Assembly: GCA_054600435.1 (NCBI GenBank)
Contig: BAAIJX010000014.1
Span: 186,001-250,000, forward strand
DNA: 64,000 nt
Direction of reading: 5' to 3'
Source of the DNA: Neophaeotheca triangularis
Lineage: Eukaryota
Made by a program: the position numbers and the translations under genes. Shown here piece by piece: positions 25,901 to 56,336 of this stretch. The notes under the pieces are model-generated. The model did no database searches, was not told the origin of the DNA, and saw only the letters and a list, made by a program, of their open reading frames with translations. Position 1 is the first letter of the stretch. Every line of letters begins with the position of its first letter.

Positions 25901-26138
25901 GTACATCCGCATGCTCGAGGACCCGGAGATCTCAGGCGACGTCCCCCCCTCGTGGACGACGGAAATTGAGAACAACATTTGGACGCGGAATGTGACGTTG
26001 GGGAACTTGAGCGAGGGAAGTCATACGCTTAGATGGAATGTCAACTCGCCCGAGGTCTATCTTGAGAAATTGGTGCTGTCGGCTCGTGGCGAGGTGCCCG
26101 ACAGTTATCTTGGACCACCTGAGTCCATGCTGTTGTAG
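22927..26138 (+). CDS. Secreted glycoside hydrolase family 115 (alpha-glucuronidase-like), 5 exons
   Basis: Signal peptide MFRLFLTFLGLL; GSDSRGATFG, PAVKYRGLFINDEAP, FDLLLRLKANFIWPAMW, STSHHEPMQR, TLGMRG, WVMNVGEIKPME, SYLGPPES. Introns are approximately 23403-23466, 24099-24152, 24305-24352 and 24418-24470. Confidence 0.9.
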
Positions 26139-34290: not shown

Positions 34291-34767
34291 GTTGAATAAG
34301 CGGCTTTATCTTCGCGCTGTCAGCGAAGCAGCGTCGAATGCGCTCTTCTCAAGGCAGGCCACCTAGGTAGCTTTTCTTTCGCAAAGGGCTGGACTGACGT
34401 GCAAAGGTGCACTTAATTGTGGCTGAGATTCCCGCTCTGGGGTGCATGGCGCCAGCAACGCAACGGCCCGTGGAGGCCCGCACACGTGGGCATCAAATCC
34501 AGATCTACCTCCAGGTACCTAGATCTCATCCGCGATTCACTTCACCCCACCCACCTCACACATGGCACTGGGTGAAGACAGAGAATTCAGTGCAACGATG
34601 AAGGAGAAATCCCTTGAATACCCTGCTATCCACGTGTACTCGCATTGGAGCAATCTGCAAACTGATGTCGGCTCCGTCGTCATTGCAACGTCTCTCTCGT
34701 CGCCATTTCCCCTTGACTAGAATACCCTATCTTGCAACCTGATCGCCTCTTTCACAACTCAGGCTTC

Positions 34768-35596
34768 TCATAGTGCCTGTAACTCGGTACTAATCGAGGC
34801 GGTCCCACTTATCGGGGCTTCTAAAAAAACACTTCTCCGCAAGTCGTACAAAGGAAGGCCAAGCTCGACCAAGAAATCCTCGAGAGACGGTGCGTCTTTC
34901 CCGTCCAAATCCGTGGCGTCGAGAGCGTTCTGAACGATCCTCCTGAGGGCGACCGCAGTGGGCATCTCGCGAAGCCCATTGGGGCCAACTTCAGCCGCCT
35001 TTCCCTCAGGGCCGTTCATGTAAACAACTTCCACGGTCTTTTTGACAAAGTTGATGGAGACTTCATGTTCGCGGCGATGGTAGACTGGCGAAACGGTGTT
35101 GAAGGTGAAAGTGACGTCGCCGAGATGTTTGAGTATTTTTCTGTTGAGGGAGATGCCTTCCAAAAGCTCCCCGAGTTGATAAGAACATATCCATGGCCTT
35201 TCATACCCAGATCCGTCTCTGGTAGGCATGACCACGAACTCGCCCATGTAGATCTTGGTGTTGTAGTAGTAGATGCCCGACATCTCTTTCCTGATCTGAG
35301 TGCAGGTCTGCATGAGGGGCGGAATATTGATCTCGGGGCCCACTTCCGAATCCGAGTACGGGGCGTCCAGGGGACGTGCGTGGTTGCGATAGTACACCGG
35401 GGCATGGGAGGAAATGACGAATTCGTAGATGCGATTGCGTAGTTCCGGGATCAGGTCGAGGAATGGAAAGGTGAGTGCGTTGGGGTTGTCGACTGGACCA
35501 ATGGTTAGTGAGGCTCTCTCGCAACATCTGGTTCGCCAACTTGCTCGCTACTATTAGAGAGCTCGTAGGCACCTCCGCAGTCGCCGAGCAAGGCAT
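34768..35596 (-). CDS. Lineage-specific protein with F-box-like N-terminal motif (FLDLIPELRNRIY)
   Basis: The frame upstream of the 209-aa ORF reads FPFLDLIPELRNRIYEFVI, later PPLMQTCTQIRKE...YY. It joins MPCSATAE.. via a probable GC-AG intron at 35544-35493. The start is uncertain. Confidence 0.6.
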
Positions 35597-36963
35597 GTCG
35601 TTGTCGTTGACTAAGCTTGAGATTAGCGAGGCGCGGAAAGTGGTATCTTGAGCTTCGACTTGCTCATTGTGGTTTGAGGGGCCGGATGCTGGGTGCCGGC
35701 GTTGTTGGTGGACATAGCATGGGTTGACGGTGAAGGAAATTGTAAGGTGTAAATTGTTTGACGTTCCAAGTGCAGGTGAGCCGCTGGCTTAATGATATCA
35801 ACGAAGGCGCAAGACAAGCTTCTACGTGATGCTCACTTGCTAGGTAATGAAGGGAGGTCCAAACACAAGCCTCGGTGCGTAGAGTGTGGTAGTGAAGGAT
35901 ACAGAGGCGCAGACTTGGTGAACGGCGACCCCGTCAATAAAGGCCGACGCCGTAGCCCAACCAAAGAAGTTCGGTATCTCACTTGTCCGTTCAATGGGTG
36001 GGTAGAAAAGTGCTCACTCGAATGTGAGAAGTGAAGTGAAAGACGCTCAGTTAGCTAATAGGCGACTTTCAAGAAAAGAAGGGAGGCACGAAAGCGCGAA
36101 AATGTAAGCAAGCTCGTAGCGACCTCCTAGGCAATCCTTGGCACAATATGCAGCAAAGACCTCACCAAATACACATCAAATAAATGATGATACCTCGTGA
36201 AATCCAGCAAAAGAAACTCTCCGCATGCGGAGACAAAGAAACCACTTAGACAACCGCACCTCGTAGAGGCTGGTTTGCTTTTTAATTTTTTCGCGGTCCT
36301 AGAATTAGCGCCCTTGGGCGGTCAGCAGGAGGGGGAATCGAACTAGTAGAGGGGGGAGGAATCTGAGTTGAAGAACAAACCGTTACGCCTAATGCCCGTG
36401 GGCAAGGAGCTTGGGCTGCGAATTGTATTTGTAGTTTTGAGGCATAGTGTATGCGCTGGATGGGGGTGAGAGGGCTGATTTTGCGACTGGAGGGTGTGGT
36501 ATGGATGCGATTGATGCGCGGCCAAGGGGGATCGTCTGCATTCGGTTTGTTGATATACTTGGATCTTCGATGCGCACACGCGAGTCGGGGCCGCTATTCT
36601 TGATTCTCGTGACACTGGTATGGTCTGCGAAATTCCTTTCTTCTGGACTTTATCTGTACCCTCCAAGCTCCGGCGTTTTTCAACAGAGTAAGCGTGTGTA
36701 AACAAACGAACCTCGGTGGCTGCTAGTGGACGTTCTTCAATGGGATCTCTGCAAGCGCATCGCTTCAGAGCCGGCGGCCTAGTCATTAAAGCGTCAGCGT
36801 ATATTCGAACCCTTCGTTGCAAGAAGTACTGACTGTTGCTTTGATTTTATGCCTTTTATGCCATATAGGCGCACTCGCATCACGTACCAAGGCGATGGCC
36901 AGCTCGCATTCATCGAACCGCACGCTGCAAGAGCGACACTTCGTCTATGAACTAACAATTGAA

Positions 36964-38109
36964 CTAAAGATCCGCCAGAACCGCTTTCGCGGCCTGCGAC
37001 GGCGCAGGAGCAACATGCATATTCCCCAAGACAGCATCCACATACTGCTCAGCATCCCTACTTACCCTACCCACATCGACCCTCCTAAGCGCCTGCCTCT
37101 GCGCTTCAACAACCTCCCCCTCCTCCATAACATCTTTCATGACCTCTCCCTCTTTGACCCAATACGCCTCCGTCTTACTCCTTAACCCCCTATCCCTCCT
37201 GCAAGCATTACTCACCACCCCCAACCCCCTCGCCTTCCCCGCAACCCCCTCAAGCATCTTGACATGATCTAGCAAAACCTCGGCAGGCTGCGGCGGGCTG
37301 AGGAAGGCCCTGCCCGTAGCTTGCAACCAAATAACCCACCCCAACAAGCCATCGACACCCGCAATTAGCAGTCCGCGATAAACCTGCAATTTCCAGTAAA
37401 TCCAATCCACCTCACTCAACCTCGTCGAACGCGCATTATGCGTGTGATCATACTGGCCCACGACAAAAAGCTCAGCAGCCGCCAACACCAGGCCGGCAAT
37501 AATCGCAGCCGTCCGCCAGCGCGCTCCCTCCTTGCCAGCCAGAACTCCCGATGTCGCTACGCCCAGCGCAAACAGGTGCAGAAGGTGCGGCGCCAGCAGC
37601 GAAGGCACAGCGTAGAAGAGGTAAGTCGTCGCGGCGTCCATGTCGCCCGGGTTCGCAAACGGGCAATCCGCGAGAATGTCGGGACCGTACTGCGCGTACA
37701 GCAACCGCGCGTCTAGACCGCCGGCTTCCAGCACCGTGCGCAGGCGATCGTCATGGTCTGTCGGGGTTCTGATACTTTTTAGCCGGGTGATAAGAACGCT
37801 CGTCTGGGTTTGAATTCGGCTTTGGGTATCTTTGAAGATGTTGGTAGGGGCGAAGAGGGGGAGGGTGGAGAGGAAGGCAAGGCTGCCCGAGATGAAGAGG
37901 ATGCCGAGGGCGTAGGAGGTGTGAGTGGGAAGGGTTTGAGGTTTGGCCGAGGGCCCTGCGCGTAGGGAGCGGTAGGTGCTGAGGAGACGAGGGAGGAGGA
38001 CGGGGCCGAAGAAGATGAGGATTGATTGGATGCTGAGGTCAGAATGTTAGTGTTGGCTGGTTGTGGCAGTCTCGTAGTGGGGCACGCCGTACGTTTGCCA
38101 GGATATCAT
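36964..38109 (-). CDS. Conserved fungal membrane protein of unknown function, 2 exons
   Basis: Spliced MISWQTIQSILIFFGPVLLPRLL...; RLLYAQYGPDILADCPF, DGLLGWVIWLQATGR, YWVKEGEVM. Intron 38092-38033 (GTACGG..CTAAC..CAG). Confidence 0.8.
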
Positions 38110-38658
38110 CTTCGAGGAAATACAAAGTGGTTATGTGCACACGATGTCTGGGGTGGAAAGGCGGAAGCTTGGAGCCATGTAATCGAAGGAACAATGGGTA
38201 TGGAAGCTATGTACCTAGGGAGGGACATGCCAGGTGTCGTGCAGCAGCGTCGATGGGTGAGTGAACCCCCACTTTGTTCCCCATGGAATTGAAGCTGGCA
38301 GGTGACTTCACCGACACATCTTCTCGGATATACGTAGTCATCCAATTGTCAACAAGAATGGCACTGATGTGCTGACCGAAGACTTCACAATCAATTCTCG
38401 CAATATTAAGGCATCAGATCGAGCGAGCATCGCCTCAAAACACCACGAGTCTACTCCTACTACACTTTTCTCGTTTTGCATACCGCGCTCACTTCATAGT
38501 GCTCGGTATTCTGGCGCTACAACCACCCCCATGATCACTCGGAAGGCAGCTTGCCCTTCCCTCTAGGTGAGTAGATTGGTGGACTTCCCGCAGCGTTCTC
38601 GCTTCAATAATTCCCCATCCAGCCGCAAGATAGTCGAAGCCCTCAGTCTTCGCTACCT

Positions 38659-39462
38659 TCATTCGACATCGAATTCGACGCTCCCGAACCCCTCGAAGAT
38701 ACCACTCCAGTGCCCCTGCTCCTCCATGGGTATAGCCTCAAGGCAGCTACCTGGAAGAATGAGCTGGCCGGCTTCAAACTCCAAGCCATAGGCCGCGAGA
38801 CGGTTGGCCAGCCATGCAATGCCATTGACTGGGTTGCCAAGGATGGCATTGGTGTTACCAGACATTCTTTCAACGCCATTGAACTTCAGGCTGCCTCTGC
38901 AATCATTGAGTGCGAGCTCGGTGAGCTTTCTAGGGACGGCGCCGAGGATGACGGAACCGCAAGAGCCGTTGTCCGCCAGGGTGTCGGAGTGGTTGATCTC
39001 CCAGTTGGTCACGCGGGAGTCGATGATTTCGATGGCAGGCAAGATGTAGTCGATGGCGTTGATAACATCGATGACGGTCACCCCAGGTCCGCGTAAAGGG
39101 GCTTTTAACACCACCGCTGGCTCCAGTTCCACATAAGGCCGGATGTATTTGCTCCTCTTGAGCGGCGTACCTTCGTAAATGAGGCTGCTGCTGACAAGGA
39201 AGCCGTAGTCGGGCTCGTCGACGCCAAAGGCGGCTTGCATGGCTTTGGCGATGTTGCCCAGTTTGTACCTCACAAGGCGATCGCCATTCTTCACTGCGTT
39301 ACGAGTAGTGATGCGCTGCACTTCGAAGGCACTGTCGGTGTCCAAGGGTGGCCATGTTCGAGATGGCGGTGCCATCGGCTTATTGTCGTTCTTGGCTGTG
39401 TGCAGCGCAGCTGCGATGTCCCGTAACTCGAAAGGGTCCATTTTGCCCCTGAAGTCATTCAT
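38659..39462 (-). CDS. 2-oxo-acid hydratase/decarboxylase of the MhpD/HpcG(HpaH)/DmpH family (FAH superfamily), intronless
   Basis: YKLG...AMQAAFGVDEPDYGFL, VELEPAVVLKAPLRGPGVT, PAIEIIDSR, DTLADNGS, ILGNPVNGIAWLANRL, GQLILPGS. The start is MNDF at 39462 or MDPF at 39441. Confidence 0.88.
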   Translation of the reverse strand: MNDFRGKMDPFELRDIAAALHTAKNDNKPMAPPSRTWPPLDTDSAFEVQRITTRNAVKNGDRLVRYKLGNIAKAMQAAFGVDEPDYGFLVSSSLIYEGTPLKRSKYIRPYVELEPAVVLKAPLRGPGVTVIDVINAIDYILPAIEIIDSRVTNWEINHSDTLADNGSCGSVILGAVPRKLTELALNDCRGSLKFNGVERMSGNTNAILGNPVNGIAWLANRLAAYGLEFEAGQLILPGSCLEAIPMEEQGHWSGIFEGFGSVEFDVE

Positions 39463-40175
39463 GTTACTGTCTAAGTAGGAGGGTCCTGATCGCAGACGCT
39501 GTAAATCGGAACGTAAGACGTATCGTTCCTTGTGTAGGAGCGAACCCTTAGAAGAACCGAAGGTTTTGTGGGAGGGGCATCGTTCGAGGGCGCTACGGGA
39601 GAACCACAATGGGAACAGGAGTGTCAGCTATGGGGGATCTAAGAAGTTTCGACACCGCATCTTGTAGATGAATGCTAGTCTGAGCCTCATGAAACGTGCC
39701 AACTACATCGGGCCATTTACAAAGGACAGCACGATTGGGACGCGGGCACGTGTCGAAAACGTTGGACAAAACATCTGAGCATCCCCCCGTCTTGCTGGAA
39801 TAGTCCAAGAACTGTAGTTGCAGCCTAAAATGGCATGAACGAAACCGACTGCGTGCGTTCAGTATCGACGGTGCAGCATTGAACAACCGATCGATGTATT
39901 ACCGGATTCGGTAATTTGCAGCGAGTGCAGTACAATGCTCACCCCTCACAGCACCCTCCTGGACAATCAACGTATTCTCGATGCGGGATATATTCAAAGC
40001 TAGCGTTGGGTGACAACACGCGTGTTCTCGGGCTCCGATATGTCAAATAAAACTGGCCGACGCCATCGCTCGTCAAGTCGTAAACCTCATCCGCAACTAC
40101 TTTTCCCTTCGAGCTCCCTCATTCTGTTTGCGATTCCCCACCGCTGGACAAAGCTCTACGACTATATCAAACAGA

Positions 40176-41724
40176 ATGCCTTCTGAATTCGCTTCGACTC
40201 TGAAAGATCCAAATCTTTTCCAAGATAAATGCTACATTAACGGGCAATGGGTTTCCTCCTTCTCTAGCAAGAGCTTCGAAGTTCACAATCCAGCAACCGA
40301 TGACTTAATCGGCTCATGTCCCGAGGCGACGGTCGATGACATGGAACACGCGATCAAATCGGCCTCGATGGCGTTTCCAGCTTGGAAAGCTGTCTCCGGT
40401 CGCGCGCGAGGCCGCATCCTACGCAGAGTCTTCGACCTTCTTTGCGAAAACAAAGAGGACATTGGCAAAATCATTACCTCGGAGAATGGCAAGTCGATGG
40501 GTGATGGTCAAGGCGAAGTTCTGTTCGCCGCGGGATTTTTCGAATGGTTTGGTGAGGAGGCCGCTCGGGTATATGGCGACATCGCTCCACACAGTAATGC
40601 TTCAAGCCGGACGCGCATCCAAAAGGAACCCGTCGGTGTTTGTGGCCTAATCACCCCTTGGAACTTTCCTATCGCCATGGGTGCGCGCAAGATCGCCGCA
40701 GCGCTCGCAGCGGGCTGCACTGTAGTCCTCAAGTCCGATGGCTTGACCCCCTACGCTTCCAACGCACTCGTGGTGCTGTGCGAGCGCGCTGGCGTACCCA
40801 AAGGCGTTCTCAACGTCGTCACAGCTCTCGACAACACGCCCCAACTTGGCCTGACCATGTGCCAATCTGACACCGTCAGAAAGATCTCCTTCACCGGCTC
40901 GACGCGTGTGGGTAAGCTGCTCATGCAACAGTCGAGCTCCTCACTCAAGAAGCTGAGCTTGGAACTTGGCGGCAACGCACCTTTCATCGTCTTTGACGAC
41001 GCAGACGTCGAAGTCGCCGTCACAGCCGCTCTTGGCAGCAAGTTCAAAGTCACCGGCCAGACGTGTGTCTGCGCCAATCGCATCTTCGTCCAGGAAGGCA
41101 TTTACGATTCTTTCAGCCGACGACTCGTCGAGGAAGTGAAGAAGTTCAAAGTCGGCAACGGCTCTGATACTTCCGTCACCCATGGACCTCTGACCAACGG
41201 CGCCGCAAAGGTCGAGCAACACATCAAAGACGCGAAGAGCAAGAACGCCAGAGTTTTGCTGGGCGGGCAGAAGCTCCCTGCGCTGGGTAGGAACTACCAC
41301 GAACTCACCATCCTCGGCGACGTCGATGATTCAATGATGGTGAACAGCGAGGAGACCTTTGGACCTATTGCAGCTCTCAGCAAGTTCAAAACGGAAGACG
41401 AGGTCGTCAAGCGAGCCAACAGCGCCGAAGTTGGTCTCGCGTCGTATCTGATGACAACCGACTTGGGTAGGTCCCATCGTGTCTCTGAAGCCTTGGAGGC
41501 CGGGATGGTTGCTATCAACACGGGTGTCATTTCTGATCCCGCCGCACCGTAAGTGTACTGCCGGAAAGTGTTTAGCTACACATGAGATTGCTGACTTTGT
41601 ATCTGCTTCCAGGTTCGGAGGTGTGAAGCACTCGGGCTTCGGTCGTGAGGGCAGCAAATACGGTTTAGACGATTACATGGTGTTGAAAACTGTCATCACA
41701 GGCGAGATTAGCTCGCGGCTGTAG
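40176..41724 (+). CDS. Succinate-semialdehyde dehydrogenase-like ALDH (GabD/Uga2 family) with PTS1 (-SRL), 2 exons
   Basis: [35 protein letters not shown] (catalytic Cys), [20 protein letters not shown]. Intron 41549-41612. Ends EISSRL. Confidence 0.92.
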
Positions 41725-42271
41725 TTGAGTTAGGGAACAGTTGTACATGTCAGACTTTTGAAAAATTGTCTCGTTACATCCCGTCTGTTACAGAGGAATA
41801 CATGCATGCCTGAGGCAGGCATTGATCTTGGCGCATCGACACCTTCCTTTCACCTCCACTGCCTATTAAGGTTGCTACTAACCTTCAGCTCCTACATTGA
41901 TGCTTAACAGTAACGCCATTCAACAAAGGCCAAGGCCTTGTAAGATCTTTTTGTGACATGATCTCTCCAACCGAAACTGGTCTGCAAGTCGTGATTGGCC
42001 GACGATAATGGAACTGTTTGACTGTTGCCAATAATGATAATGTCACGCTCTTGCAGCAAACCGCGCACTGTCTTTCCCGATATGGAAATATTCTTGGAGT
42101 CGACATGTCGGCCAATTATTATACTACCGATAAGTACCCAAGAAGCCGACCTAGATATAAGCTAGTAAGGTATCGACGAAGGGGTGCTCGAGTTCTTTTG
42201 CCCCCTCCCCCTCCTTTGCAATTCAAAAGCTGAAGCCTTACGACACGCTGATACCATTTCCAGCAACAATA

Positions 42272-43767
42272 ATGTTCGATGTCATAATAGTTGGTGCTGG
42301 GCTGAGTGGCCTTCAAGCCGCCTGGTCAGCCAAACAAGCTGGTCTTTCCACCATTGTCGTTGAGGCCAGAAACAGAGTCGGAGGCAAAGTCTGGAGTGAA
42401 CCTACGCTGGGAGGCCTTGGAAAGGCGGACTTGGGAGCTGCTTGGGTTAACACAAATCACCAGCCTAGGATTGCCGCTTACTTGAGGCAATTTGGGCTTG
42501 AGACGGTCGAGCAGCGGCTCACAGGGACCGCCGTCGTGCAAGTCAAGAAGGGCGAGAGGGAGGAGTTCCCGTTTGGCATTACGCCGAATGTGAGTTAGAA
42601 GAAGGGGCTTTGTAAGAGAAGATGTTGTCCGCTAATGATATAACCTCAAGTTCACGCCTGACGAGAAGCGGAATCTCGAATTCATCCGCGACCACATCGA
42701 GGCCGAGTCTCAATCACCAGGCCCGCCGAAGCAAGAGGATGACCAGGTGACTCTCGATCAATATGTACGCAAGCTCGGTGCAACTGCGCAGACGGCTCAG
42801 ATGGTGAATATCTGGTCGCGTGTTATGCATGGCGTCGAGTCCACGGAGCAGTCTGCGGCGTGGTTCATCGACTATTGCAGGCGCAACAAAGGCTTGTTGG
42901 CGATCCGAAAAGATGATCCTGACGGGGGAAACTACCAGAGACTCTTCGCTGGTAAGATGACGCGCACAAAAAATTGGTCGGGCGGCTTTAGTAATCTTCT
43001 GTGCAGGCACCCAATCCATTGCTGAAGGTGTTGCCGATCTACTCGGCCGCGAAAACATACGACTCGGTTCTCCAGTAGCATCGATTGCAAACGACAAGAA
43101 CCATGTCACGGTGACGACAAACAACGGCGATGTCTTTTCCGCCAGGAAGTGCATCATCTCCATGCCAAGTACTATGTTGAAAGATCTGAACTTCTCTCCA
43201 CCGCTACCACAACGCCTACGAGAAGTCACGAATTCTACGATTCTCGGTCACTACAACAAATCAATACTAATCTATCGCAAACCCTGGTGGAGAGAAGCTG
43301 GCTACAATGGCTTCGTCATGAGCTTCGACAGCCCCGTGTGCTTGGGCCGGGACACCAGCATTGACGACAAGGGCCTATACATGCTCACTTGTTTCGTCAA
43401 CGGTGCGAACGGAGAAGCCTGGTCAAAGTTGTACCCCCATCAGCGCCGCAAGTCAGTCATCGACCAGGTGGCCTTTCTCTACGGTCAAGGACCAGACTCG
43501 GAAGTCTACCGCCCAGTCGAGGTCTTTGACCAGATTTGGAAGCATGAGAAGTACAGTCAAGGTGCTTTGGCGCCTATCCATGCGCTGGGTCACTATACCG
43601 GGTACGCAGATGTCTATGGTAAGCCCACAGGGAATGTGCACTTTGTGGGGACTGAGTACTCCCCTGAGTGGAAGGGCTACATGGAAGGTGCATTGTGTTC
43701 TGGGGAGATTGGGGCCGGAGAAGTCGCTGAAAGCCTTCGAAACAACTCCGCAAGGGCCAAATTGTGA
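42272..43767 (+). CDS. Flavin-containing amine oxidase (MAO/putrescine oxidase family) with PTS1 (-AKL), 3 exons
   Basis: DVIIVGAGLSGL, EARNRVGGK, DLGAAWVN, HFVGTE...WKGYMEGAL. Introns are 42590-42650 and 42952-43006. Ends SARAKL. Confidence 0.92.
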
Positions 43768-44468
43768 GTCGGCTCTATACAAAACATAAAAATGTTCCTT
43801 TTTCTCTTGATCTCTCGTTCTTTCGATATTCCCTATTCCAGCGATTTCCGGTACATAAATAGCAGTGGGGCGAAAGGAAGAGCAATACCCATTCCCAGAT
43901 GCTATCCTACATCTGTGCTCGATACGGGAGCTTACTAGACGACATGGAATCGTAGATTGCAGTTCCGTCGTTTTCTCAGTCGCAAGGCTAAACCTTTGAG
44001 GCCCTGGAGATGCAATTCTGCCCGATTTCCCGATCCGGCAACATTGTGCGAATGTACCTCCTAGCGACTCTCAGGGGCCAAACGAAGGCCCTTCCTTCAC
44101 AATTGCACTCGCCAAGTAAAACAAATTGGAATCGACAATTGTGGGCATTCCAAACACTACTGATGCATTGCCTTTCATGGAAATCTGCTCGAGCGACCAG
44201 ACGTGAGCTGTTTCGAGCCATTTGAGATTCCATGTCTCTTTCAGTCCAAAATAAGCTCGACAGGAGCCCGGGTCTACAATGTGTGCTGGGCCTACCAGAA
44301 TTCGAGGATCAATTAGTGCATTGCAGCATCTCGAGCGATCCTTAAGTCTAAGCAAATTGACAACTGAATCACATTTCCGTTACGTCTTTTGCTAGGTTAC
44401 TCGTTGACATCCGGTACAGAATGCCTTCTGCGGAACCCGGGTCGAAACGCAACCTTGATCATAACATC

Positions 44469-45424
44469 ATGGGTAGCTCTACTATTGAAATGCCAGAATC
44501 AGATTACGAGAAGCGTCGCCTCGATGCCCGGAGTCTTTCGCATCCTGCCTATTACCAAGCCCATCCGGTACAGAAACGTCTTCAACGAAAACGAGGAGGA
44601 GGACGCACGCTGACTTGTCATATCCAGGCACCGATGGCTATGGGCGGCTTCGCGACAACGCTCCTAACCGTCTCACTCGCCATGATGGAGTTTCGAGGCG
44701 TTCACGTCCAGACCGTCTTCGTCGGAAACCTCTGCTTTGTAGCGGGAATCGGCCTATTGATTTCTGCGCAGTGGGAAATGGCCAGGGGCAACACCTTCTC
44801 CTATACGGTTCTCCAGTCTTTTGGTACCAAGTCACCGGTTCCATTTAATTACAAGGAAGATTGTGGCTGATGTGCTACAAAGGTCTGTTCTACAGCGGCT
44901 ACGGCGCGATTATGATTCCTGTCCTGGGAATCGCTGATGCATACGGTGGAGATGATACACCCGAATACTACAATGCCATGGGTTTCTTCGTTCTGAGCAA
45001 GTCGCAATACCATGCCAAGGTCGTTGCGCGGCCATACTTTACTAACAACACCGATAGTCTGGGCCGTCCTGAACATCTTCTTCCTGATCGCTTCCATGCC
45101 ATTGTAAGCTTCCGACCAGATCGAACCCCAGTCCAGCGCAATACAGCTAACTAGTCAACTACTAGTAACATCGTCTACATCCTCATCTTCACAACGGTCG
45201 AGCTCTGCTTCGCCCTTGATGCCAGCTCATACTTCGCCCGCGCTGACGGCAAAATCGCGACTTCAGATGCCCTAATGAAGTCGGCCGGGGTTTTTGGCTT
45301 CATCTCGGGACTCTTGGGCTACTATACGACTCTGCACTACTTGTGCTCGCATGCATTGCCTTTCAGGGTTCCGATGGGAGATACTTCCAAGTACTTTGCA
45401 AGAATGAAGCATGGCAGGTTGTGA
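44469..45424 (+). CDS. GPR1/FUN34/YaaH (AceTr/Ato) family transporter, 5 exons
   Basis: Spliced HPAPMAMGGFATTLL...QWEMARGNTFSYTV..FGLFY..YG...YNAMGFFVLIWAVLN. Introns are 44568-44627, 44824-44882, 44997-45057 (GC-AG) and approximately 45104-45165. The stop TGA is at 45422-45424. Confidence 0.88.
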
Positions 45425-46047
45425 GTCAGGCAAGAGGAATCGTCGTTGGTTGTACCTAGGGAGCGGGTAAGGCGCGACCCTGGTGCAGAGGGATCGGAGA
45501 CGATGGAGATTTACATAGAGATACTGTACAGCTAAGGGCTAAAGCTATGCTCTTCTCCCGGCGGTTAAGATCGAGAGGAACAGCGCGCTGGATTAAGGAT
45601 CAGGTCTCCGCAACCGTTAAAACCTCTTCTACATTTGGGATGCACTAGTGGCGGTCGTATTGAATCACTGCGAGCTGATGAAGAGCTGCGTGGAAGGCCG
45701 AAGCTTTTGTCCATATTTCTTTCCAAGAAGCCGGTTGATAAATGAGACGATTGAGCATAGGTCAAGTTTTGCAGGGTAGGAGTTCTGATCGTTAGTCATG
45801 AAGCGGTAGACGAAATCACGATCCGCTCGCCTCAAGGAGTCAAGGTCGACTCGCTACGGGGACTGCGGAAGACCTCTCTTCTAGGGAGCTGTGATGTCCA
45901 GACGAAAGTAGCTGACTTGAAATTAGTTTCAAGGTTGGAGGCGATCAACAAAGTGCGAAGCTAGTCTCAGAAAGAGTTGATCATACTATTTATCTACGAA
46001 TTGACCTCAAAAATCGCATCATTCGCATGTCTCAGACTCTTACAGTC

Positions 46048-46356
46048 TCACGACGAATGCGAATTGTCGGCGCAAGACCAAGCAGAGCTGCCATTCTCGC
46101 CGCTGTACTCATTCACAATCCCGACAATCGCTCCATAAGATCCAGCAACCATGCAGAAAGTCCCTATGAAGATGACGAACACACTCCAGCCCACCATGCG
46201 AGTCACGTCACCTCGCAAGGCCGTGATATCCCTAGCAGCCCCAGTAGGCACGCGGTCGATATGCTCGATCTTGGTATCATGCTTATTCGTTTCGGGATCG
46301 TTTGAAAGCGAGTCGCGAATGGAGGACCGAGAATGGAGTTGGGAAGAAGACGCCAT
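46048..46356 (-). pseudogene. Internally deleted relic of an Mtr-type (Aa_trans) amino-acid permease
   Basis: A 102-aa ORF with a hydrophilic N-terminal tail joined directly to WSVFVIFIGTFCMVAGSYGAIVGIVNEY...SAWSCADNS, the last TM and SCADNS terminus typical of fungal Mtr-like permeases (normally about 11 TM). Confidence 0.7.
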
Positions 46357-47083
46357 AGCGATGTAGGGAAAAGGAGCGGCACGTTCGGCAAAAGAGTGTG
46401 CTGAGGGCTCGCGCGACGGCGTTGGAGGTTATCCCAAGCTGTTGAAAGGCTGCCCGGGCATTCAGCTACACCGAACAGCTCTTCAACACAGCCAGAGAAG
46501 ACATGTCTTGTTCGAATGAGGCAACCAAGCCATTTGCGTCTATCTGGGGACATTGCTGTCCTCAAGCCAAGTCAATATGTTCCTGATCTCGAAAGCGTGG
46601 GCCTCAGGATATTGCCAATTTGATCGACCACGCGCTCGCAGAAGTTGACCCGAATAAGTAATTTTGGACTCCAGCTGTTCTCCGCGCTGTGCAGCTCACC
46701 ACGCAGTGAAAGACCTATTAACCCAGAATATTCAGTCAATTCGACCTGTGTCCAAACCAAGTAGGTGCTGGATGAGGTAAATCATCATTTCCGAATCTGG
46801 CAAATAACTCATCGCTTCACCCAACTGAATTGAGCAACATCTTGACCAGCTCACATGTCTGCAATATTAACGCTTCGTATGCGGCTGCAACTTCCTAAAC
46901 AATACCTCATGTGCGCAAAGATCTCTGGAATGGTATAAGAAAGCTCCGCCAAAGTAGTGTGTCGTCTAGTCCTTAGGCCCATCAGAAACACTTATCAATT
47001 CTTTCAAGACCACTGCAGCCGCCCAACATCACTAGTACCTTGTTACCAAGTTCAACACACCTTACGACAGTCTACCTACCAAC

Positions 47084-48194
47084 ATGGGCGCTCTTACTCA
47101 GGTGCTGAGCGCGCAGGACGTGTCCAAGAACGTAATGAGACCCAATCACAAATTCACCAACCTTCCAGAGTCCCTTGTCAAAGAAGCAGGCATGGTCGAA
47201 ACCAGAGACTTCAATGCCGTCGAGCACATCAAGTACGAGGCACCATCGAAGATTTTCACTACTCACGAGCTCGGCTTGGGAGAGATCGGAATCTCCAATA
47301 CCGCAGTCTCAGAACCGTTCTCGCTGTTCTCCGAGGACGCCATCAAGCAGATGAGGCGCGAGGTCTTCAATCCAGAGGTGCTGGATCGTTTTCACTGCCA
47401 AACGGGGCCCTCATCCGGACAAGTGCGCGGTCACTGCCCCGAGTAAGTCAACTTGAACGCCAGTTTCACTCCGCAATCCACCATTTTTGACACTGCATCG
47501 CTCTAGATACGCGCCTTTCATATACAACGCCTGGAACAGCCCCGAACTCTTGAAGATCGTCTCGGATATCGCGGGGGTCGATCTCGTGCCCGCAATGCCC
47601 TACGACATGGGCCACACAAACATATCCATCAACTCCACGGGCGGCGAAGAGAAAGACTCAATCGCGCCGGGCGAGCAAACCGCAACCAACTCGTCCGGGT
47701 ACTGCGAATCCGCCTTCGGTTGGCACACGGACAGCTACCCCTTCGTGGTGGTCACTATGCTCTCCGACTGCGAGGGCATGGTAGGAGGCGAGACGGCTAT
47801 CCGCACAGGCAACGGTACGCCGATGAAAGCCCGCGGGCCCAGGTTGGGCACTGCCGTCGTGATGCAAGGCCAATACGTGCAGCATGCAGCGACGCCAGCA
47901 GTGAGCGGCCGCGAGCGCATTTCCATGGTCACCAGCTTCAGGCCCAAAAGCGCAACCATCAAGGACGGCACCATTCTGCGCGGTGTGCGCAACATCAGCA
48001 ATCTCGAGACGCTCTACAGGCAGTTCAGCGAGTATCGTTTGGAGAACCTGGAGGATCGTGTGCGAGACGAGCTGCGCCTCTTGCACAAGAATCATACGGC
48101 GAAGCGCAAGTTTGATACTGCACAGCTTCGGGAATGGCTTTTCGAGCAGAGGGAGTACATCGATCACATGCTGAGGGAAGTGCGAGCGGACTAG
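47084..48194 (+). CDS. Uncharacterised Fe(II)/2-oxoglutarate-dependent oxygenase, 2 exons
   Basis: GWHTDSYPF (HxD), GGET, QGQYVQHAA (distal His), RISMVTS (2OG-binding Arg). Intron 47443-47506. Confidence 0.75.
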
Positions 48195-48874
48195 ACCTTT
48201 CCGTTTTCGTATGATATTATCGCTCCGCATTGGATGCCTTTAGGCTTTTCGGATTGGCTGTTGGTCTTTTATTAACTAAGTCAAATCAACGAGATTCTTT
48301 GTTCGGTCTTAGCGTCTTCCCAGCGCCTTCCCAATCTAGTAATTAATAATGATGGAGTTTGGATACATACTTTGTCGAATGTTGCAACCTGTCTCTCGAA
48401 CAAGACGTATATTTTTCCCATTATTTCATATGCTTTCGTTTCACTCGCTCACTCCGAAGCTGCTGTGTGGGTAAAGACATGGTTGATGAGAACTTGAGAA
48501 CTTGAGTCTGAGAAGCCCACGAGTCCTTCAAGCATTTCCAAGACTTCTGCGACCAGCGTGGCGATACTCCGCGGGAGCTGATAGACAGTCCAGGAAAAGC
48601 ACCGAATCGCGTTTGTCCTTGCATACCCAAACGCTAGCAGTAGAGCCGCCGTCCGGCCGTAGAAATGCAGTGCGATCTTACCCTCGAGTGTTGAGATTAC
48701 ATGTGTGCTCTGGAGGGTACGGAGGCGGCAACTTCGCTTCTTCTAAGATCTTCAGTCAAGATAGCTGATGTGTTCTTCCTCTCAGTAGTGGAAAGCCTGG
48801 ACCGAGCTCTGGTCTTTACACTCACTGATACGTTTCTTCTAAGGGATGGCATCTCGCAATAAGTGCTGTTCTCG

Positions 48875-50971
48875 TCACCCTAGCATGGTCTGCAGCCGCT
48901 TATCGTGAACTACATGCATCCAATGGGCGTAATCCTTCAGCTCATCCAAGCGCTCCCATACTTCGTTGATGACATCGAGCAGCTGCATGATTTGCTTCTG
49001 CGGGTATTTACGGGAGAGAGCAAGCATGCGCTCCTTCACAAAGTCCCTGGAATCGCTGATTTCCTTGCTCCTGGCGTCATCGGAATCTTGAGAAGTCTTT
49101 GGAAGTCGTAGTTGGCTCGCGCATGAGATGAGGGTTAGGAGCTGCATTCGACACGCTCCGGAGGTGACGGGAATGCACTTGATGATGTTCAGAGTGAATT
49201 CGGCAAGGGCGCAGGCGCATGATTCTACATAGTTTGAATTGGCTTGATGGTCCGCGTCTGCTGGCGGGTGGAAACGTTGATCGTAGCACTTTGGGAAGAG
49301 AGAGCCGGCCGCGAGTTTGTTTTCGAGTATCGTGGGAAAGCATGTGTATATTTCCAGGAGAGCAATATGCCGATTGGCGTCTGCAGACCGAATTAAATCG
49401 ACTTTTGGCGTGGCGCCGTGGCCGTAGTCAAGAATTGCATCCTCTTGTGGTATGACGATGGCGTACACGAACTCTTCTAACGACAGAGCCCAATGCACAT
49501 CAATCTCTGGAAGATCTGCCTCGGGCTGGCGGCGTGCTGGTTGTACGTCGGTACACCGCCGCCTTCGGAGCACTCTCCCGACCTCCCCTAAAGCAAAATG
49601 AAGCTCTGTACTGATGCCGGTCCAAGGGTGCGGTAGTTCTGGCTCGCGTTCACTCTCGCCTGGAACATGAGGGTTCGGGGAGCCATATCCTGGAAACGGG
49701 GCCATTGGCACAGGATCGATAAAGCTTGCGAGCATTTCCCAATGCATAAGAGAGTCCGTGAAGAACTTCTCCTCTCTAAGGTCGCTCGAGCCATGCGCAG
49801 TACCGCAGAGATAACTTTGCATCAGGCTTCGAGCGACGGAAAGATATTGAAGGCCCAGGTTTGAGGGTTGCTGCCATGCGGAGGAAAGACCAAGGAGGAG
49901 GAGACTGACCATGATGTTTTCCATGGGGAGCTTTCCCGCGCGGTTGAGTTGTAGGTCGAGTTGCAATGACCTCCACGCTTGCAAGTGCTTGAGTTGTCCA
50001 AGCGGACCCATGTAGAGATAATGGTTGGCGAGATGGGCAATGGCCATACTTTGTATAGCAATGTGAATTGTCTTTGACGATTTCATCTCTTCCACCATTG
50101 TCCGAAAGGGGTTGAGTGTAGAGTCAAAACACGAGAACAGAGGGCATACTGCAGTGAAATAGTGTTGCACCAAATGTTCTTCCGAGAAATGGGCGACCGA
50201 CGAAGGAGTTGACAGGCGGTAGAATGTGCCCAGAAGGCTTCTTGCACCCGGTCTCAGCCCCGAAGAAGGTGCCATTGCGCGCTCGGCAGAGGTTCGGGTG
50301 TCTCTAGGATTGGTCCCTTGCGGTCCCAGACGTTGAAGCGGTTGCCTCTGCGTCAGCGGGTCTGTCCATGGGAACAGTTGGGCCTGCGCCTGGTAGTCTA
50401 AACTTGGTGGCATGCTGATAGAGCCAAGGTTGAACATGGAGATATCGTTGGCCGTCATATCATTGGCAAATGGCATACCAAATTGCCAGAGGTCGTCAAA
50501 ATCCGTGCCTAGTGCAGCCTGGTCACGGTAGGGGAAGGTTACATCCACGGGTCCGGCTGGCTGCACAGGAGCATCTTCTACGACGGCCTGTGAATCACCG
50601 CCAATCGGTGACTCTGGCAGGGTCGAGTGGTCGACATGGGCAGAGATTTGCTGAGTCTGGTTGACCTGGCTGGTACCATGGATTGTCTGCAGAGCGTTTG
50701 TCTCTTCGGTTGGCGGAACGCAAGTGGTGGCGGCCGGCTCGGTGCAGGCGACGTTTGCTTCATCAGCGGCATGGTTCCTGAAATCTGCACTCGCTCCGTT
50801 TAATCTTTCGTGCTTTCGCGACCATTTGTACTGGAAATCGTAGCCGGGGCATTCAACCGAAGCTCGTTGGCAAGCTTGACAGGCAGGCCTTGCCTGATCG
50901 CACTTTATTTTCTTCGTCTTGCATCGAGCACAGCCCTCACGGGACTTGGAAGGTTTGGCCACCCGTTTCAT
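48875..50971 (-). CDS. Zn(II)2Cys6 transcription factor with Fungal_trans_2-type C-terminal domain
   Basis: SREGCARCKTKKIKCDQARPACQACQRASVECPGY; LVQHYF...FDSTLNPFR, HWEMLASF, PHPWTG, HWMHVV. Confidence 0.9.
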   Translation of the reverse strand: MKRVAKPSKSREGCARCKTKKIKCDQARPACQACQRASVECPGYDFQYKWSRKHERLNGASADFRNHAADEANVACTEPAATTCVPPTEETNALQTIHGTSQVNQTQQISAHVDHSTLPESPIGGDSQAVVEDAPVQPAGPVDVTFPYRDQAALGTDFDDLWQFGMPFANDMTANDISMFNLGSISMPPSLDYQAQAQLFPWTDPLTQRQPLQRLGPQGTNPRDTRTSAERAMAPSSGLRPGARSLLGTFYRLSTPSSVAHFSEEHLVQHYFTAVCPLFSCFDSTLNPFRTMVEEMKSSKTIHIAIQSMAIAHLANHYLYMGPLGQLKHLQAWRSLQLDLQLNRAGKLPMENIMVSLLLLGLSSAWQQPSNLGLQYLSVARSLMQSYLCGTAHGSSDLREEKFFTDSLMHWEMLASFIDPVPMAPFPGYGSPNPHVPGESEREPELPHPWTGISTELHFALGEVGRVLRRRRCTDVQPARRQPEADLPEIDVHWALSLEEFVYAIVIPQEDAILDYGHGATPKVDLIRSADANRHIALLEIYTCFPTILENKLAAGSLFPKCYDQRFHPPADADHQANSNYVESCACALAEFTLNIIKCIPVTSGACRMQLLTLISCASQLRLPKTSQDSDDARSKEISDSRDFVKERMLALSRKYPQKQIMQLLDVINEVWERLDELKDYAHWMHVVHDKRLQTMLG

Positions 50972-51459
50972 TTAGCTGTTGTGTCAGATATTGAAGACGA
51001 GGCATGATATTGGGGGAGGGTGTAGTACGAGTGAGAGGAGATGGCTCCATGATATGGACTGAGGTACTTAAGCTTAGTATGCCGTGTTCCGATGGCGAAG
51101 TAAGGTACCTACCTCCTAACAATGCTAACCTCGTGCGAAGCTGATGTGGAGTGGTCTTGCGAGAGGCCTCAGGCCGCCACTTTCAACTTCCTTCCACTTC
51201 CCCGCCTATATAAGGTAAGATAGGAGGTAAGGTATCTAGGTAGGTAAGTACTATACTTTCCTACTATATAGGTAGGAGGTACCTAGGGAGGATCACTAGT
51301 ACCTTATGTACTAAATGTACGGCTCTTCCATTCTGTTCATTATTGCTCCATAAGTACATAAGTAGGTGAGGTACAAGTGCTTACCGACCACCCCTAGCGA
51401 CCCGGCCACTACATAGTTTTACTTTCAACACACCGCAGACACCTCCCTCCCACGTCAAC

Positions 51460-52599
51460 TTGTCGCCATCGCCATCTTCGAGAGCCCATCAGCCACCTCC
51501 GATCCAACAAGACGGTGCACCAAACGCCTTCTCCATGCTCGCGGCATCAGGGGGGGCTTTCAAACGCCGCGAGTCGGATCGCCCTAGCATAGGCACAGTC
51601 AACAGCTACGCGCGAGACCTCCCCACGAGCAACGGCAACAATCCCCCTCCACCGCTGGGGAATGCCCCGAACAACCCAACAGCCATCTACAACCACATCA
51701 CAGAGCTCTCGGTCAAGCGCATAGCAACCATAACCTACCTCCAGCACCTGCACGCCCAACCCCAGCAACCCGGGCATTCCCAAACCTACCACTTTAACAC
51801 CCTAGCCTACACACCGCAGCAACTCTCGACCTTCCCCTCCCTCCAACCCGCCCGCCTAGGCCGCCGCGCAGCCTCTTATCTCCTCCTGGGCTACTCCCTC
51901 CCAGCCCTTCTCGACCTCAATTCCGCCAACCCCCTCGAATACCTGCGCGCCCTCACAGCCCTCCTCTCCGAATTCGAAACTTACCAAACCCTGACCGACA
52001 CCCACCATGCCGCCGCCGCCAGCGGCAGTAGCAGCCTCAGCCGCGCCAAAATGGGCGCAATGTTCAAAAACAGCATGGGACTGGGCAGCCGTGTAGGAAG
52101 CGGAGCGCGTGGGCGCAGAACAAGCGCCACCCCGGACAGCATAGCTTCTTTACAACAAGAGCCCCCCGAACCGCAAACCTCGAACCCCCCGCCCCCTCCC
52201 GCTGCCAGCCCCAAAGACCCTCACCCCATCAATCTCGAAAACCAGCACTTCACCCACCTCCTCACACCTCATCTACCCTTCGACCCCGATTTCACAACAA
52301 CTTTCAGCACCCTGTGTGACGCCCTGATAGAAACATACACAACCCTCATCCACCTCGTGAGCAACGGACACACCCACAACAACAACAGTACCACCACCAC
52401 CACGACCGCTGAAGAACCCAGCCACCAGCTCCCCGGCCCCTGCACTCCCGCCGTAGCCGAAGCTTTCAACAAAGCCGACAAACTCGTGCGCAAACTACTA
52501 ATCGCAGGCATCCTAAAAGAGTTTGAAGAACACACGCGCGCGGGCATCAAGAGCGAGGTCAGTGGTGTCGGGAAACTGGTGCTCGGGGGGCTGATGTAG
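51460..52599 (+). CDS. Conserved fungal hypothetical protein (5' end uncertain)
   Basis: 379-codon frame with structured blocks KRIATITYL, YLLLGYSLPALLD, EYLRALTALLSEFE, HLLTPHLPFDPDF, FNKADK. The first in-frame ATG is at 51535; there is a possible upstream exon (acceptor-like CCGCAG at 51433-51438). Confidence 0.75.
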   Translation: MSPSPSSRAHQPPPIQQDGAPNAFSMLAASGGAFKRRESDRPSIGTVNSYARDLPTSNGNNPPPPLGNAPNNPTAIYNHITELSVKRIATITYLQHLHAQPQQPGHSQTYHFNTLAYTPQQLSTFPSLQPARLGRRAASYLLLGYSLPALLDLNSANPLEYLRALTALLSEFETYQTLTDTHHAAAASGSSSLSRAKMGAMFKNSMGLGSRVGSGARGRRTSATPDSIASLQQEPPEPQTSNPPPPPAASPKDPHPINLENQHFTHLLTPHLPFDPDFTTTFSTLCDALIETYTTLIHLVSNGHTHNNNSTTTTTTAEEPSHQLPGPCTPAVAEAFNKADKLVRKLLIAGILKEFEEHTRAGIKSEVSGVGKLVLGGLM

Positions 52600-53993
52600 G
52601 ACGTCTATTCCCCGGACACGGAAGCTCTCGCGAACAGTACCAAAGGCAAGAGTACGGGGAGGCTGGATAAAGCAACGATGTCACGGATCCCCGTGCGTGT
52701 TGCTGCAATAGCCAGTGTCGACGGTGGGAGAGCTGCGCTAGAGCTTGAAGTTCGGCCGGTTTCGCGCAAGGCTGTCAGGGCGCTTGAGCGCGCTAAGAGT
52801 CGGGTTGAGATTAGGAAGTGAACAGAAGAGCAGGAGACGTGTTGGGGGGCGAGGGGTTGGCTGATGTGGGTTTCGGGATGCTTTCACGGGGTGTTCAGGG
52901 TTAGATTGGCGTGGGATATTTTGGCTTTTTGGGCTTGATGAGATACCCCTTCCCTTTTCATTATTTGACGCCGGATGCTATAGGGATCTGTGGCATGGTC
53001 TTGCGTGTGTACAAACATAGATGAGTATTTGGATACTTGGCATCGATAAGCAGCCTGGCATTGTTGCTACTCTAGCGAACAAAGTACCAAGCCCCTTTCT
53101 CTCATGCTCTCCCCTCATCTCCCTGCTCCAAGCCATGGAAGCGGCATGTGTATGTACCTACTAGGTAGCCAGCCAGCCAGCCAATGCGTCAGCCGCGCAA
53201 AAGCAACCGCGCAGCGCCTTAAGCGGTGAGCGACGCCCTCGTCACTGTCGACGCCTTGATTGAAAGTCCCGAGGTTTCCAGCCCAACCCGACAGAAGACC
53301 GCGCCGAAAGTCAAGCGCCCTTGTTCTCTCAGCTGCCACCACAACAGCACAAACTCGAAAGCACAAGACCCAAGCAATCAACTTGTTCTCTTTCGCAGCC
53401 CAATGTTTTCTCCTCACGAGCCCACCAGTGTTGGTATCCAAAGGCCTCCCTCCCGACGGTGTCGTTGCGCTTCGTCCCATCAATCGATATGAGGTACCGG
53501 CGCTCGGGATCCTCTGAAGCCGAGGGATTCGCCAGGGCATTCGCTCAGACCCCAACACTGCCCTCTGCGGCTTTTTTTTCCCTCAAGCTTCCCACCGTCC
53601 ATGCCGATGAGTGTCGTTGGCAAGTTCTCGTTGGCTCACAGGGATCGCCGGTCTCGCTCGGGGGGTGGGGGGGGGGATTGTAAGTGCCCTCGTCGTGCTC
53701 GTGTGCTGGAGGAGCGCTGCCCGCCGCGGTTTGCCATGCGCAGTCTGGGCTAGGGGAGAGCGGAGGGTATGGACGTGGTGTGGCCGCGGTGTCGAGCGCT
53801 TCCACTCGGCTGCCTCCCTCGAGAGGGTGTTTCCACGGACAGGCAGCCATGTCCTCGATAACCAGCCCAGCCCACGAATCTACCACCAGCAGCATCCCGC
53901 TCTCAGTTGGCCCCGACTCCGCAGCCGACTCACTTAGCATAGCTCCTCTCCCGTACCGCAAGCCAACGCAAAATGTATACAATCAGATCGGCT

Positions 53994-56227: not shown

Positions 56228-56336
56228 CTCCCTTGTGCCATTGACTTCGACCTCGACCTCGATACCTATCACCTAATCATACCAGCCTCGCTTGTCAAAG
56301 ACTTCAAACACTTTTGCAACCAACAGTCACGACAAG

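Follow-up and report, generated by a model that had tools for sequence, protein, structure and literature searches.

Seven loci form a compact island between conserved genes

A 64,000-nucleotide stretch of the genome of the fungus Neophaeotheca triangularis (GenBank assembly GCA_054600435.1, contig BAAIJX010000014.1, positions 186,001–250,000 of the forward strand; hereafter the window, numbered from its first letter) contains a group of metabolic, transport and regulator genes at 38659–50971, which is the subject of this study. The genes of this region were called from stop-to-stop open reading frames (ORFs), Pfam matches and hand-built gene models. Within 12.3 kb, six genes are intact and a seventh, for a transporter, is broken (Table 1). 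The intact genes encode a hydratase or decarboxylase (HYD), an aldehyde dehydrogenase (ALDH), a flavin amine oxidase (AO), a channel of the Ato type (ATO), an Fe(II)/2-oxoglutarate (2OG) oxygenase (OXY) and a Zn2Cys6 transcription factor (TF), and the broken one is the remnant of an Aa_trans permease. HYD is divergent from ALDH, the remnant is divergent from OXY, and TF is convergent with OXY. An earlier interpretation made from the letters and translations of the window (hereafter the sequence-only reading) had described seven contiguous loci with no housekeeping gene between them. All seven were found at the same positions with no further gene in between, and the seven family assignments given there all hold. 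Because the gaps between the island genes are about 550–730 bp, there is no room for an additional gene. The genes on the flanks encode an Mtr4 helicase, a BMT5 methyltransferase (ribosomal RNA), a TFIID subunit, a JAB/MPN protein and Utp25, and the left neighbour (36967–38046) is similar to hypothetical proteins from Ascomycota and Basidiomycota alike. Thus, the metabolic, transport and regulator genes are bracketed by conserved or housekeeping-type genes and form a compact island.

Table 1. Features of the island, in positions of the window (aa, amino acids).
Feature	Position	Strand	Details
HYD, HpcG/MhpD-type (FAH-fold) hydratase or decarboxylase	38659–39441	-	260 aa, single exon; PF01557 and HpcG/MhpD matches
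Common divergent intergenic region of HYD and ALDH	39442–40175		from the gene models; no word in common with the other promoters
ALDH, SSADH/GabD-like aldehyde dehydrogenase	40176–41724	+	494 aa; intron 41549–41612; C-terminus SRL
AO, MAO-family flavin amine oxidase	42272–43767	+	459 aa; introns 42590–42650 and 42952–43006; C-terminus AKL
ATO, GPR1/FUN34/YaaH (AceTr/Ato) channel	44421–45424	+	253 aa; four introns; PF01184
Aa_trans (Mtr-type) permease remnant	46051–46356	-	102-aa ORF; deletion junction 46198–46203
OXY, Fe(II)/2-oxoglutarate oxygenase of an uncharacterised fungal family	47084–48194	+	348 aa; intron 47443–47506
TF, Zn2Cys6 transcription factor	48875–50971	-	698 aa, single exon; Zn_clus and Fungal_trans_2

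HYD belongs to a hydratase clade that is linked with amine oxidases in Actinobacteria

HYD matched the FAA_hydrolase profile (PF01557) with 32.2 bits at a cut-off of 23.9, and its nearest solved relatives were HpcG (2eb4, 4e-46, residues 9–246) and MhpD (1sv6, 7e-39, residues 5–256). An upstream methionine at 39462 gives the 267-aa form in which the protein stands in the database (P0044). Residues Glu105, Glu107 and Glu138 aligned with Glu106, Glu108 and Glu139 of HpcG, which we take to be the acidic metal ligands, and the three were invariant in all 10 sequences of alignment A1. The fold, the full-length similarity and the three glutamates place HYD in the MhpD/HpcG/XylI branch of the FAH superfamily. 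Among the NCBIfam models HpaH was the best, and the scores were under the equivalog cut-off for all four models (HpaH 188.7 vs 351.5, DmpE 183.2 vs 408.8, MhpD 164.1 vs 350 and DmpH 158.2 vs 350.55).

HYD is 62–73% identical to the listed fungal proteins and, in the same database list, 62–64% identical to proteins of Rhodococcus, Streptomyces, Arthrobacter, Sinomonas and Amycolatopsis. In a tree obtained by a quick maximum-likelihood search only, 16 fungal and 13 close actinobacterial rows formed one clade (SH-aLRT 99), within which the fungal and the actinobacterial rows were parted by a single branch (99), and other Actinobacteria fell outside. This topology points to an actinobacterial ancestry of HYD.

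The surroundings of the HYD relatives were compared at 44 actinobacterial loci with a hydratase 58–65% identical to HYD, at 12 more distant actinobacterial loci (47–53%; L041–L048 and L051–L054) and at 24 outgroup loci. A luciferase-like monooxygenase was found near the hydratase in 42 of the 44 loci, an amine oxidase resembling NicA2 and pseudooxynicotine oxidase (Pnao) in 38, a flavin reductase in 37, an aldehyde dehydrogenase in 35–36, a major facilitator superfamily (MFS) transporter in 34, a SnoaL-like protein in 20 and an HpcH-type aldolase in 12. The operon occurs in Arthrobacter, Rhodococcus, Streptomyces, Saccharopolyspora, Amycolatopsis and other genera (loci L001–L056, for example L030 at 1370–10777). 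The amine oxidase was also present in 11 of the 12 more distant loci and in none of the 24 outgroup loci; the latter hold a second copy of the hydratase/decarboxylase and a muconic-semialdehyde-type aldehyde dehydrogenase, which is the classical meta-cleavage context.

The actinobacterial operon and the island are alike in having closely similar hydratases, which form sister clades, and in having the same set of roles. They differ in the oxygenase, which is flavin-dependent in the operon and of the Fe/2OG type in the island, in the oxidase, which is NicA2/Pnao-like in the former and MAO-like in the latter, and in the aldehyde dehydrogenases, which are distant from each other. The roles in common (oxygenase, amine oxidase, aldehyde dehydrogenase, hydratase and transporter) provide the strongest independent argument for a logic of hydroxylation, deamination and oxidation. 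The bacterial context also speaks against a role of this hydratase clade in aromatic meta-cleavage. The present names of these proteins (“TodF product hydratase” and “2-keto-4-pentenoate hydratase”) imply such a role, which the genomic context of the clade does not back. Literature searches found no publication on the actinobacterial operon. As the operon is widespread and carries the same hydratase, solving either system would inform the other.

The likeness to HpcG bears on an alternative in which the island would encode the first and the last steps of an aromatic amine route, from tyramine through 4-hydroxyphenylacetate to the meta-cleavage of homoprotocatechuate, with AO acting first, HYD (as HpcG) and ALDH (as a succinate-semialdehyde dehydrogenase, SSADH) acting last and the middle enzymes encoded elsewhere. 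The end of a tyramine/homoprotocatechuate route was also one of the substrate options of the sequence-only reading. In bacteria, homoprotocatechuate catabolism ends with the HpcG/HpaH hydratase, the HpcH/HpaI aldolase and SSADH, and this order is the textbook end of the pathway. The island resembles it in the pair of a hydratase and an SSADH-like enzyme, a pair that in the pathway brackets the aldolase step; the solved structure nearest to HYD is HpcG, with the three glutamates kept, HpaH is the best NCBIfam model of HYD, ALDH is closest to the GabD/SSADH type, and the HpcH-type aldolase in some of the bacterial loci fits as well. However, the island has no aldolase and no ring-cleavage gene, as had been stated from the sequence alone, and it also has no dioxygenase, isomerase or decarboxylase of this route. 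Furthermore, the HpaH score of HYD is below the cut-off, and HYD sits in a separate clade, whose context is an amine oxidase with a flavin monooxygenase, whereas the context with the muconic-semialdehyde-type aldehyde dehydrogenase belongs to a different clade. No report of homoprotocatechuate meta-cleavage in fungi was among the papers listed by a literature search. The placement of HYD in the amine-oxidase-linked clade, and not in the meta-cleavage clade, weakens this substrate option, and we consider the aromatic route very improbable. The two other options of the sequence-only reading, a hydroxylated diamine or lysine/ornithine derivative and an unsaturated amino acid such as allylglycine, stand as candidates.

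ALDH and AO carry peroxisomal-type ends

AO, OXY and ALDH were queried exon by exon against solved structures. ALDH gave an Aldedh match of 4e-140 in Pfam, and its best solved relative was the NADP-dependent SSADH 4v6h (9e-141). The ten best solved matches, which ranged from 9e-141 to 2e-93, comprised nine SSADHs and one generic “aldehyde dehydrogenase” entry. TIGR01780 was the top model, with 557.5 bits against a cut-off of 646.35 when exon 1 alone (457 of the 494 aa) was scored. The gene model has the length of the database protein P0164 (494 aa), and its exon 1 is 100% identical to that protein.

AO matched PF01593 on exon 1 (4e-16, profile positions 1–85) and on exon 3 (2e-29, profile positions 197–442). 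Its solved relatives were MAO A/B and a bacterial MAO (about 1e-28), cyclohexylamine oxidase and putrescine oxidase, in a range from 1e-28 to 1e-19, and it has the FAD dinucleotide fold and the Amino_oxidase domain over its full length, as expected of the MAO type. When AO was aligned with MAO-B, the active-site lysine (presumably Lys296 of MAO-B) and the second tyrosine of what we take to be the aromatic cage (Tyr398/Tyr435), namely Tyr435, were retained, and Cys397-Tyr398 were replaced by Ala-Leu. As Cys397 is presumably the site of covalent FAD attachment, the alignment predicts a variant active site with no cysteinyl-FAD link.

The C-terminal tripeptides of AO and ALDH are AKL and SRL, respectively, which are peroxisomal-type (PTS1) ends. 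Of 52 ALDH homologues of full length, 45 have an x-[KRHN]-L terminus, and in 14 of the 52 the tripeptide is the canonical [SA]-[KRH]-L. With such ends on both the enzymes, the H2O2-forming oxidase and the enzyme using its aldehyde would be in one compartment.

A comparable sequence of steps is known from the nicotine catabolism encoded on pAO1 of Arthrobacter nicotinovorans, which ends with the conversion of gamma-N-methylaminobutyrate to succinate semialdehyde and then to succinate by an amine oxidase and SsaDH. There, as would be the case in the island, a flavin amine oxidase feeds an SSADH, and the 4-methylaminobutanoate oxidase 7rt0 was among the matches of AO (5e-9). However, this match is far weaker than those with MAO A/B (1e-28), and pAO1 has no hydratase, 2OG oxygenase or AceTr channel.

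OXY is a predicted Fe(II)/2OG oxygenase

OXY gave only sub-cut-off matches in Pfam (19.9 vs 27; HalD 15.9 vs 26). A search limited to proteins of at least 400 aa, as compared to the 348 aa of OXY itself, returned 43 fungal homologues, and the family has no solved or named members. The predicted structure of the homologue P0001, which is 50% identical to OXY, had a pLDDT of 78.7 with residues 1–83 disordered, and it showed a double-stranded beta-helix, to which an additional N-terminal part and a long pair of helices at the C-terminus are attached. The best Foldseek matches of this model were HalD, HalB, BesD and their hydroxylase homologue (about 1e-6 (7e-7), target TM-score 0.53 and 11–13% identity). 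VIA-align superposed the model on HalB with a Z of 15.4 and a root-mean-square deviation of 3.3 over 205 residues, and unrelated 2OG oxygenases gave Z of 14.5 and 14.4; nearly all of the 50 listed entries (Z 15.4–10.2) were Fe/2OG oxygenases or had the same fold.

His247, Asp249, His300 and Arg311 (P0001 numbering) were at least 90% conserved across 35 sequences, and OXY itself reads WHTD, QHAA and RISMVTSFRP at the iron and 2OG motifs. The fold of the homologue model together with the HxD...H triad and the arginine identify OXY as an Fe(II)/2OG oxygenase, and from these motifs and the model it is predicted to be a competent hydroxylase-type enzyme. The halogenases and hydroxylases BesD, HalB and HalD act on free lysine or ornithine, and they are the top structural matches of the OXY family model; OXY keeps the HxD motif, as do the hydroxylases in that family. 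They differ from OXY in that the identity is 11–13%, the Z is barely over that of unrelated 2OG oxygenases, and OXY has the extra N-terminal part and the C-terminal helical pair. A free amino acid or amine may be the substrate of OXY, which we take as a lead only and not as a finding.

Three of the OXY homologues are annotated as fusions, two with a Fungal_trans_2 factor (P0017 of Aspergillus pseudonomiae and P0043 of Fusarium solani-melongenae) and one with a HET domain (P0039). All three are probably merged models of neighbouring genes. The two fused factors were considered as orthologues of TF and rejected, with BLASTP E-values of 0.77 and 0.013.

ATO is intact and the permease is reduced to its C-terminal end

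ATO matched PF01184 on three exons (profile positions 21–86, 82–122 and 138–192 of 207), each above the cut-off of 25, and these matches place it in the GPR1/FUN34/YaaH (AceTr/Ato) family over the six-helix core. Its third intron (44997–45057) is apparently bordered by GC and AG, with the donor GCAAGT and a branch-like TACTAAC. Only the GC-AG splice at these positions restores the frame of ATO together with the stretch ...GFFVL-x-W..., which we take to be conserved in the ATO family.

The 102-aa ORF of the permease remnant had no match in Pfam even at E = 10. A phmmer search returned 53 matches among 1.84 billion representatives, in which residues 54–101 aligned to the very C-terminal end of proteins of 405–491 aa, and an Aa_trans domain was present in all nine of the longer matches that were scanned. 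By tblastn, residues 427–474 of the 475-aa protein P0289 aligned with 46197–46054 at 60% identity, and no other piece of a P0289-like permease was found in the window. The ORF thus consists of an N-terminal tail joined to the final ~48 permease residues. As only these are left of a full Aa_trans domain of 10–11 helices, the product is a remnant and not a working permease. The “Mtr permease relic” divergent from OXY, which had been recognised from the sequence alone, was correct, as the C-terminal Aa_trans match was obtained by both phmmer and tblastn. An APC-type (AA_permease) origin of the remnant was considered and rejected; the permease on the metagenomic contig L081, described below, leaves no trace in the window, and the remnant is of the Aa_trans type.

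The contigs of a second isolate (X2) were compared with the window across 33001–53000. They cover 30 of 30 bins, and most pieces are 95–99% alike. In one X2 contig, 46198 and 46203 are separated by 1461 letters, precisely at the homology boundary of the remnant, which indicates that the isolate of the window has an internal deletion of ~1.46 kb that leaves a short open frame. The permease is probably full in X2, as judged from the extra bases, and its loss is recent. The two isolates, which are ~2% apart in DNA, one with the permease deleted and the other with the additional 1461 bases, would be a natural knock-out pair for finding the substrate. A further run (X3) gave next to no cover, with a single 42-base piece, and nothing was inferred from it.

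Three small differences of X2 were noted in intergenic DNA of the island and its border. Upstream of TF, 69 bases at 51045–51115 are replaced by 11 other letters, and there is a 2-base deletion at 51207. A 1-base deletion lies at 42043, upstream of AO.

HYD and ALDH recur together in other fungi

The co-location of HYD and ALDH was monitored by comparing their hit lists (120 best matches each) for longest contigs of equal size and by using locus tags. Apart from the entry of the window itself (482838 bases), 14 of the 119 non-self HYD matches agreed with an ALDH match in the size of the longest contig, and seven of these contigs are of 5232–66684 bases. The two genes are four genes apart in Cosmosporella sp. 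VM-42 (Fc.00g093580 and Fc.00g093620) and three genes apart in Parahypoxylon ruwenzoriense (AAE478_007486 and AAE478_007489). For the 10 named species present in both the lists, the comparison of contig sizes put HYD and ALDH on one contig in seven. Furthermore, on the metagenomic fungal contig L081 an ALDH orthologue (74% identical) is followed by an ATO orthologue in convergent orientation (48–76% over three exons) and next by an AA_permease gene. This was the only close fungal orthologue among the 80 loci kept in a metagenome scan with the ALDH alignment. At the other 79 loci, ALDH was 33–60% identical and none had ATO, AO, OXY or TF. At two loci (L156 and L157), a distant gene of the HYD family (27% identical) adjoins ALDH.

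The locus tags and contig sizes indicate that HYD–ALDH is a conserved core in other Pezizomycotina, of which ATO is probably also a part. Many Aspergillus, Penicillium, Colletotrichum and related species possess this core of a hydratase and an SSADH-like enzyme of peroxisomal type. The co-occurrence of the families in other fungi, to which the sequence-only reading had tied its cluster, stands in part. The HYD–ALDH pair recurs, and ALDH–ATO recurs at one locus (L081); OXY was not seen in the limited search.

A putative amine or omega-amino-acid catabolic island

TF has a Zn_clus domain at residues 13–49 (6e-9) and a Fungal_trans_2 domain at 267–695 (8e-23), which make it a Zn2Cys6 factor. Packing of enzymes, a transporter and such a factor is known from the catabolic clusters of Aspergillus nidulans, namely alc, which includes the AceTr-family gene alcS, and the nicotinate cluster hxn, both of which have a Zn2Cys6 factor and a permease. 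The island is like them in this arrangement and, with ATO, in having an AceTr member inside a catabolic cluster; it is unlike them in its set of enzymes.

Tentatively, and with somewhat less than even confidence, we read the whole stretch as one catabolic island for an amine or omega-amino acid, built on the conserved HYD–ALDH core. In this fungus AO has most likely joined the HYD–ALDH–ATO core, and the island is a plausible uncharacterised catabolic cluster. In the proposed pathway, the substrate would enter through the Aa_trans permease, which is probably whole in the sister isolate and is internally deleted in the isolate of the window. OXY, whose iron- and 2OG-binding residues are intact, would hydroxylate it. 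AO, with its AKL end, would oxidise a C–N bond to yield an aldehyde, ammonia or an alkylamine, and H2O2, and ALDH, ending in SRL, would convert the omega-aldehyde into a succinate- or glutarate-type dicarboxylate. HYD may hydrate or decarboxylate a 2-oxo-enoate intermediate, and completion of this branch would require an aldolase gene located elsewhere. ATO would move the carboxylate product, acetate or ammonium, and TF would switch the island genes on. The sequence-only reading had seen here a complete module for import, hydroxylation, deamination, oxidation and export. Its logic gains from the bacterial operon, in which the roles recur, and from the peroxisomal-type ends of AO and ALDH. Its completeness does not stand, as there is no aldolase and the importer is a deleted remnant.

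Several observations weigh against one island with one pathway. The importer is broken in this isolate. With no aldolase or ring-cleavage enzyme in the island, HYD is not linkable on paper to AO and ALDH, and its sub-cut-off scores for HpaH, DmpE, MhpD and DmpH appear compatible with a hydratase and a decarboxylase alike. The bacterial amine oxidases are 22–28% identical to AO, and the best match elsewhere in five of those genomes is 36% identical, so AO did not arrive with the hydratase. The bacterial amine oxidase and aldehyde dehydrogenase are not orthologues of the fungal ones, and the parallel is in roles only. In the named species, HYD and the best ALDH match are on different contigs in three of the 10 (Aspergillus nomiae, A. 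homomorphus and Penicillium angulare). The contig L081, which is of 8.3 kb with 745 bases upstream of ALDH, has no AO, OXY or TF and also no HYD. None of the 43 OXY homologues agreed in contig size with any HYD or ALDH match, in a comparison that covered proteins of at least 400 aa and no orthologues of the size found in the window, and AO, OXY or TF beside HYD or ALDH was seen in no fungal locus except the window. A crude word search of the five promoters, which may miss a degenerate site, found no exact 8-mer common to four of them, no exact 9–10-mer common to three and no spaced CGG pair common to three. Finally, two short pieces of the island have matches on a contig of 22066 bases from the same genome (run X1, record 7), namely 46047–46096 at the 3′ end of the permease (9 mismatches) and 50842–50971, the initial 130 bases of TF (25 mismatches). 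Their relative order is kept, and the spacing is 5287 letters as compared to 4745 in the window, which hints that the stretch from the permease to TF may be a separately duplicated unit with a paralogous locus.

This last contig is part of the case for two separate units that abut here, a left catabolic one with HYD, ALDH, AO and ATO and a right one with the permease, OXY and TF, which would take up and hydroxylate a different compound under its own regulator. The evidence of conservation is confined to the left unit, no promoter word is common to both the halves, and two of the 43 longer OXY homologues are the gene models fused to a Fungal_trans_2 factor. However, those fused factors are not TF orthologues, and the paralogous match is short, carries mismatches and covers the two end pieces only. 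The bacterial operons, moreover, pair an oxygenase with an amine oxidase, an aldehyde dehydrogenase and a hydratase, so that an oxygenase fits the chemistry of the left unit. We consider an arrangement of two units somewhat unlikely, while it is the nearest competitor of the single island.

A narrower alternative holds that only the association of HYD and ALDH, possibly with ATO, is functional, and that AO, OXY, TF and the remnant have no relation to it beyond their position in an accessory region dense with genes. It would account for the co-location of AO, OXY and TF not being seen elsewhere, for the lack of a promoter word in common and for a permease that is already decaying. It fits less well with the peroxisomal-type ends that AO and ALDH both have, with their consecutive chemistry from amine to aldehyde to acid, with the amine oxidase near most of the bacterial HYD relatives (38 of the 44 loci) and with seven metabolic, transport and regulator loci lying within 12.3 kb between conserved genes. 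We hold this alternative to be distinctly unlikely.

On the reading of a single catabolic island, the fungal genes look like an independently assembled equivalent of the bacterial operon, in which, judged by sequence similarity, only the hydratase is homologous. A wider scenario can be drawn from this, in which the hydratase was transferred between Actinobacteria and an ancestral lineage of Pezizomycotina. Around it, each side would have assembled, from otherwise unrelated enzymes, an undescribed pathway driven by an oxidase, with the same steps of oxygenation, oxidative deamination, oxidation of the aldehyde and hydration. The fungal version would be partly peroxisomal and would convert a hydroxylated diamine, or an amino acid of the omega-amino or N-alkyl kind, to acids of the tricarboxylic acid cycle without a transaminase. 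As a whole we regard this scenario as doubtful.

If the island is one pathway, it would add a fungal route by which an amine or an unusual amino acid serves as nitrogen or carbon source. The transferred hydratase, the convergent bacterial counterpart and the natural permease knock-out are the points of interest. The sequence-only reading knew of no characterised fungal pathway with this combination, and in agreement with it the literature searches found no publication on this gene combination in fungi. A preprint on pyrophilous fungi counts mhpD, and the gallate cluster of PMC10832562 uses a different FAH-like gene; neither has a bearing on the island.

Other features of the window

A class IV aminotransferase gene lies at 56277–57713, 5.3 kb to the right of TF, with at least three ORFs, one of them thioredoxin-like, in between; it was not counted in the island. 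Elsewhere, the window contains genes for a glycerophosphodiesterase of the SPX-ankyrin-GDE1 type and a GH115 alpha-glucuronidase (17941–21004 and 23441–26135), and a septin, a WD40 protein and a C2H2 factor are found farther left. The sequence at 36236–36282 is a short multi-copy element, at which the summed contig depth was ~1350 as compared to ~127 around it. In each of two isolates, five or more contigs carry it, with small indels.

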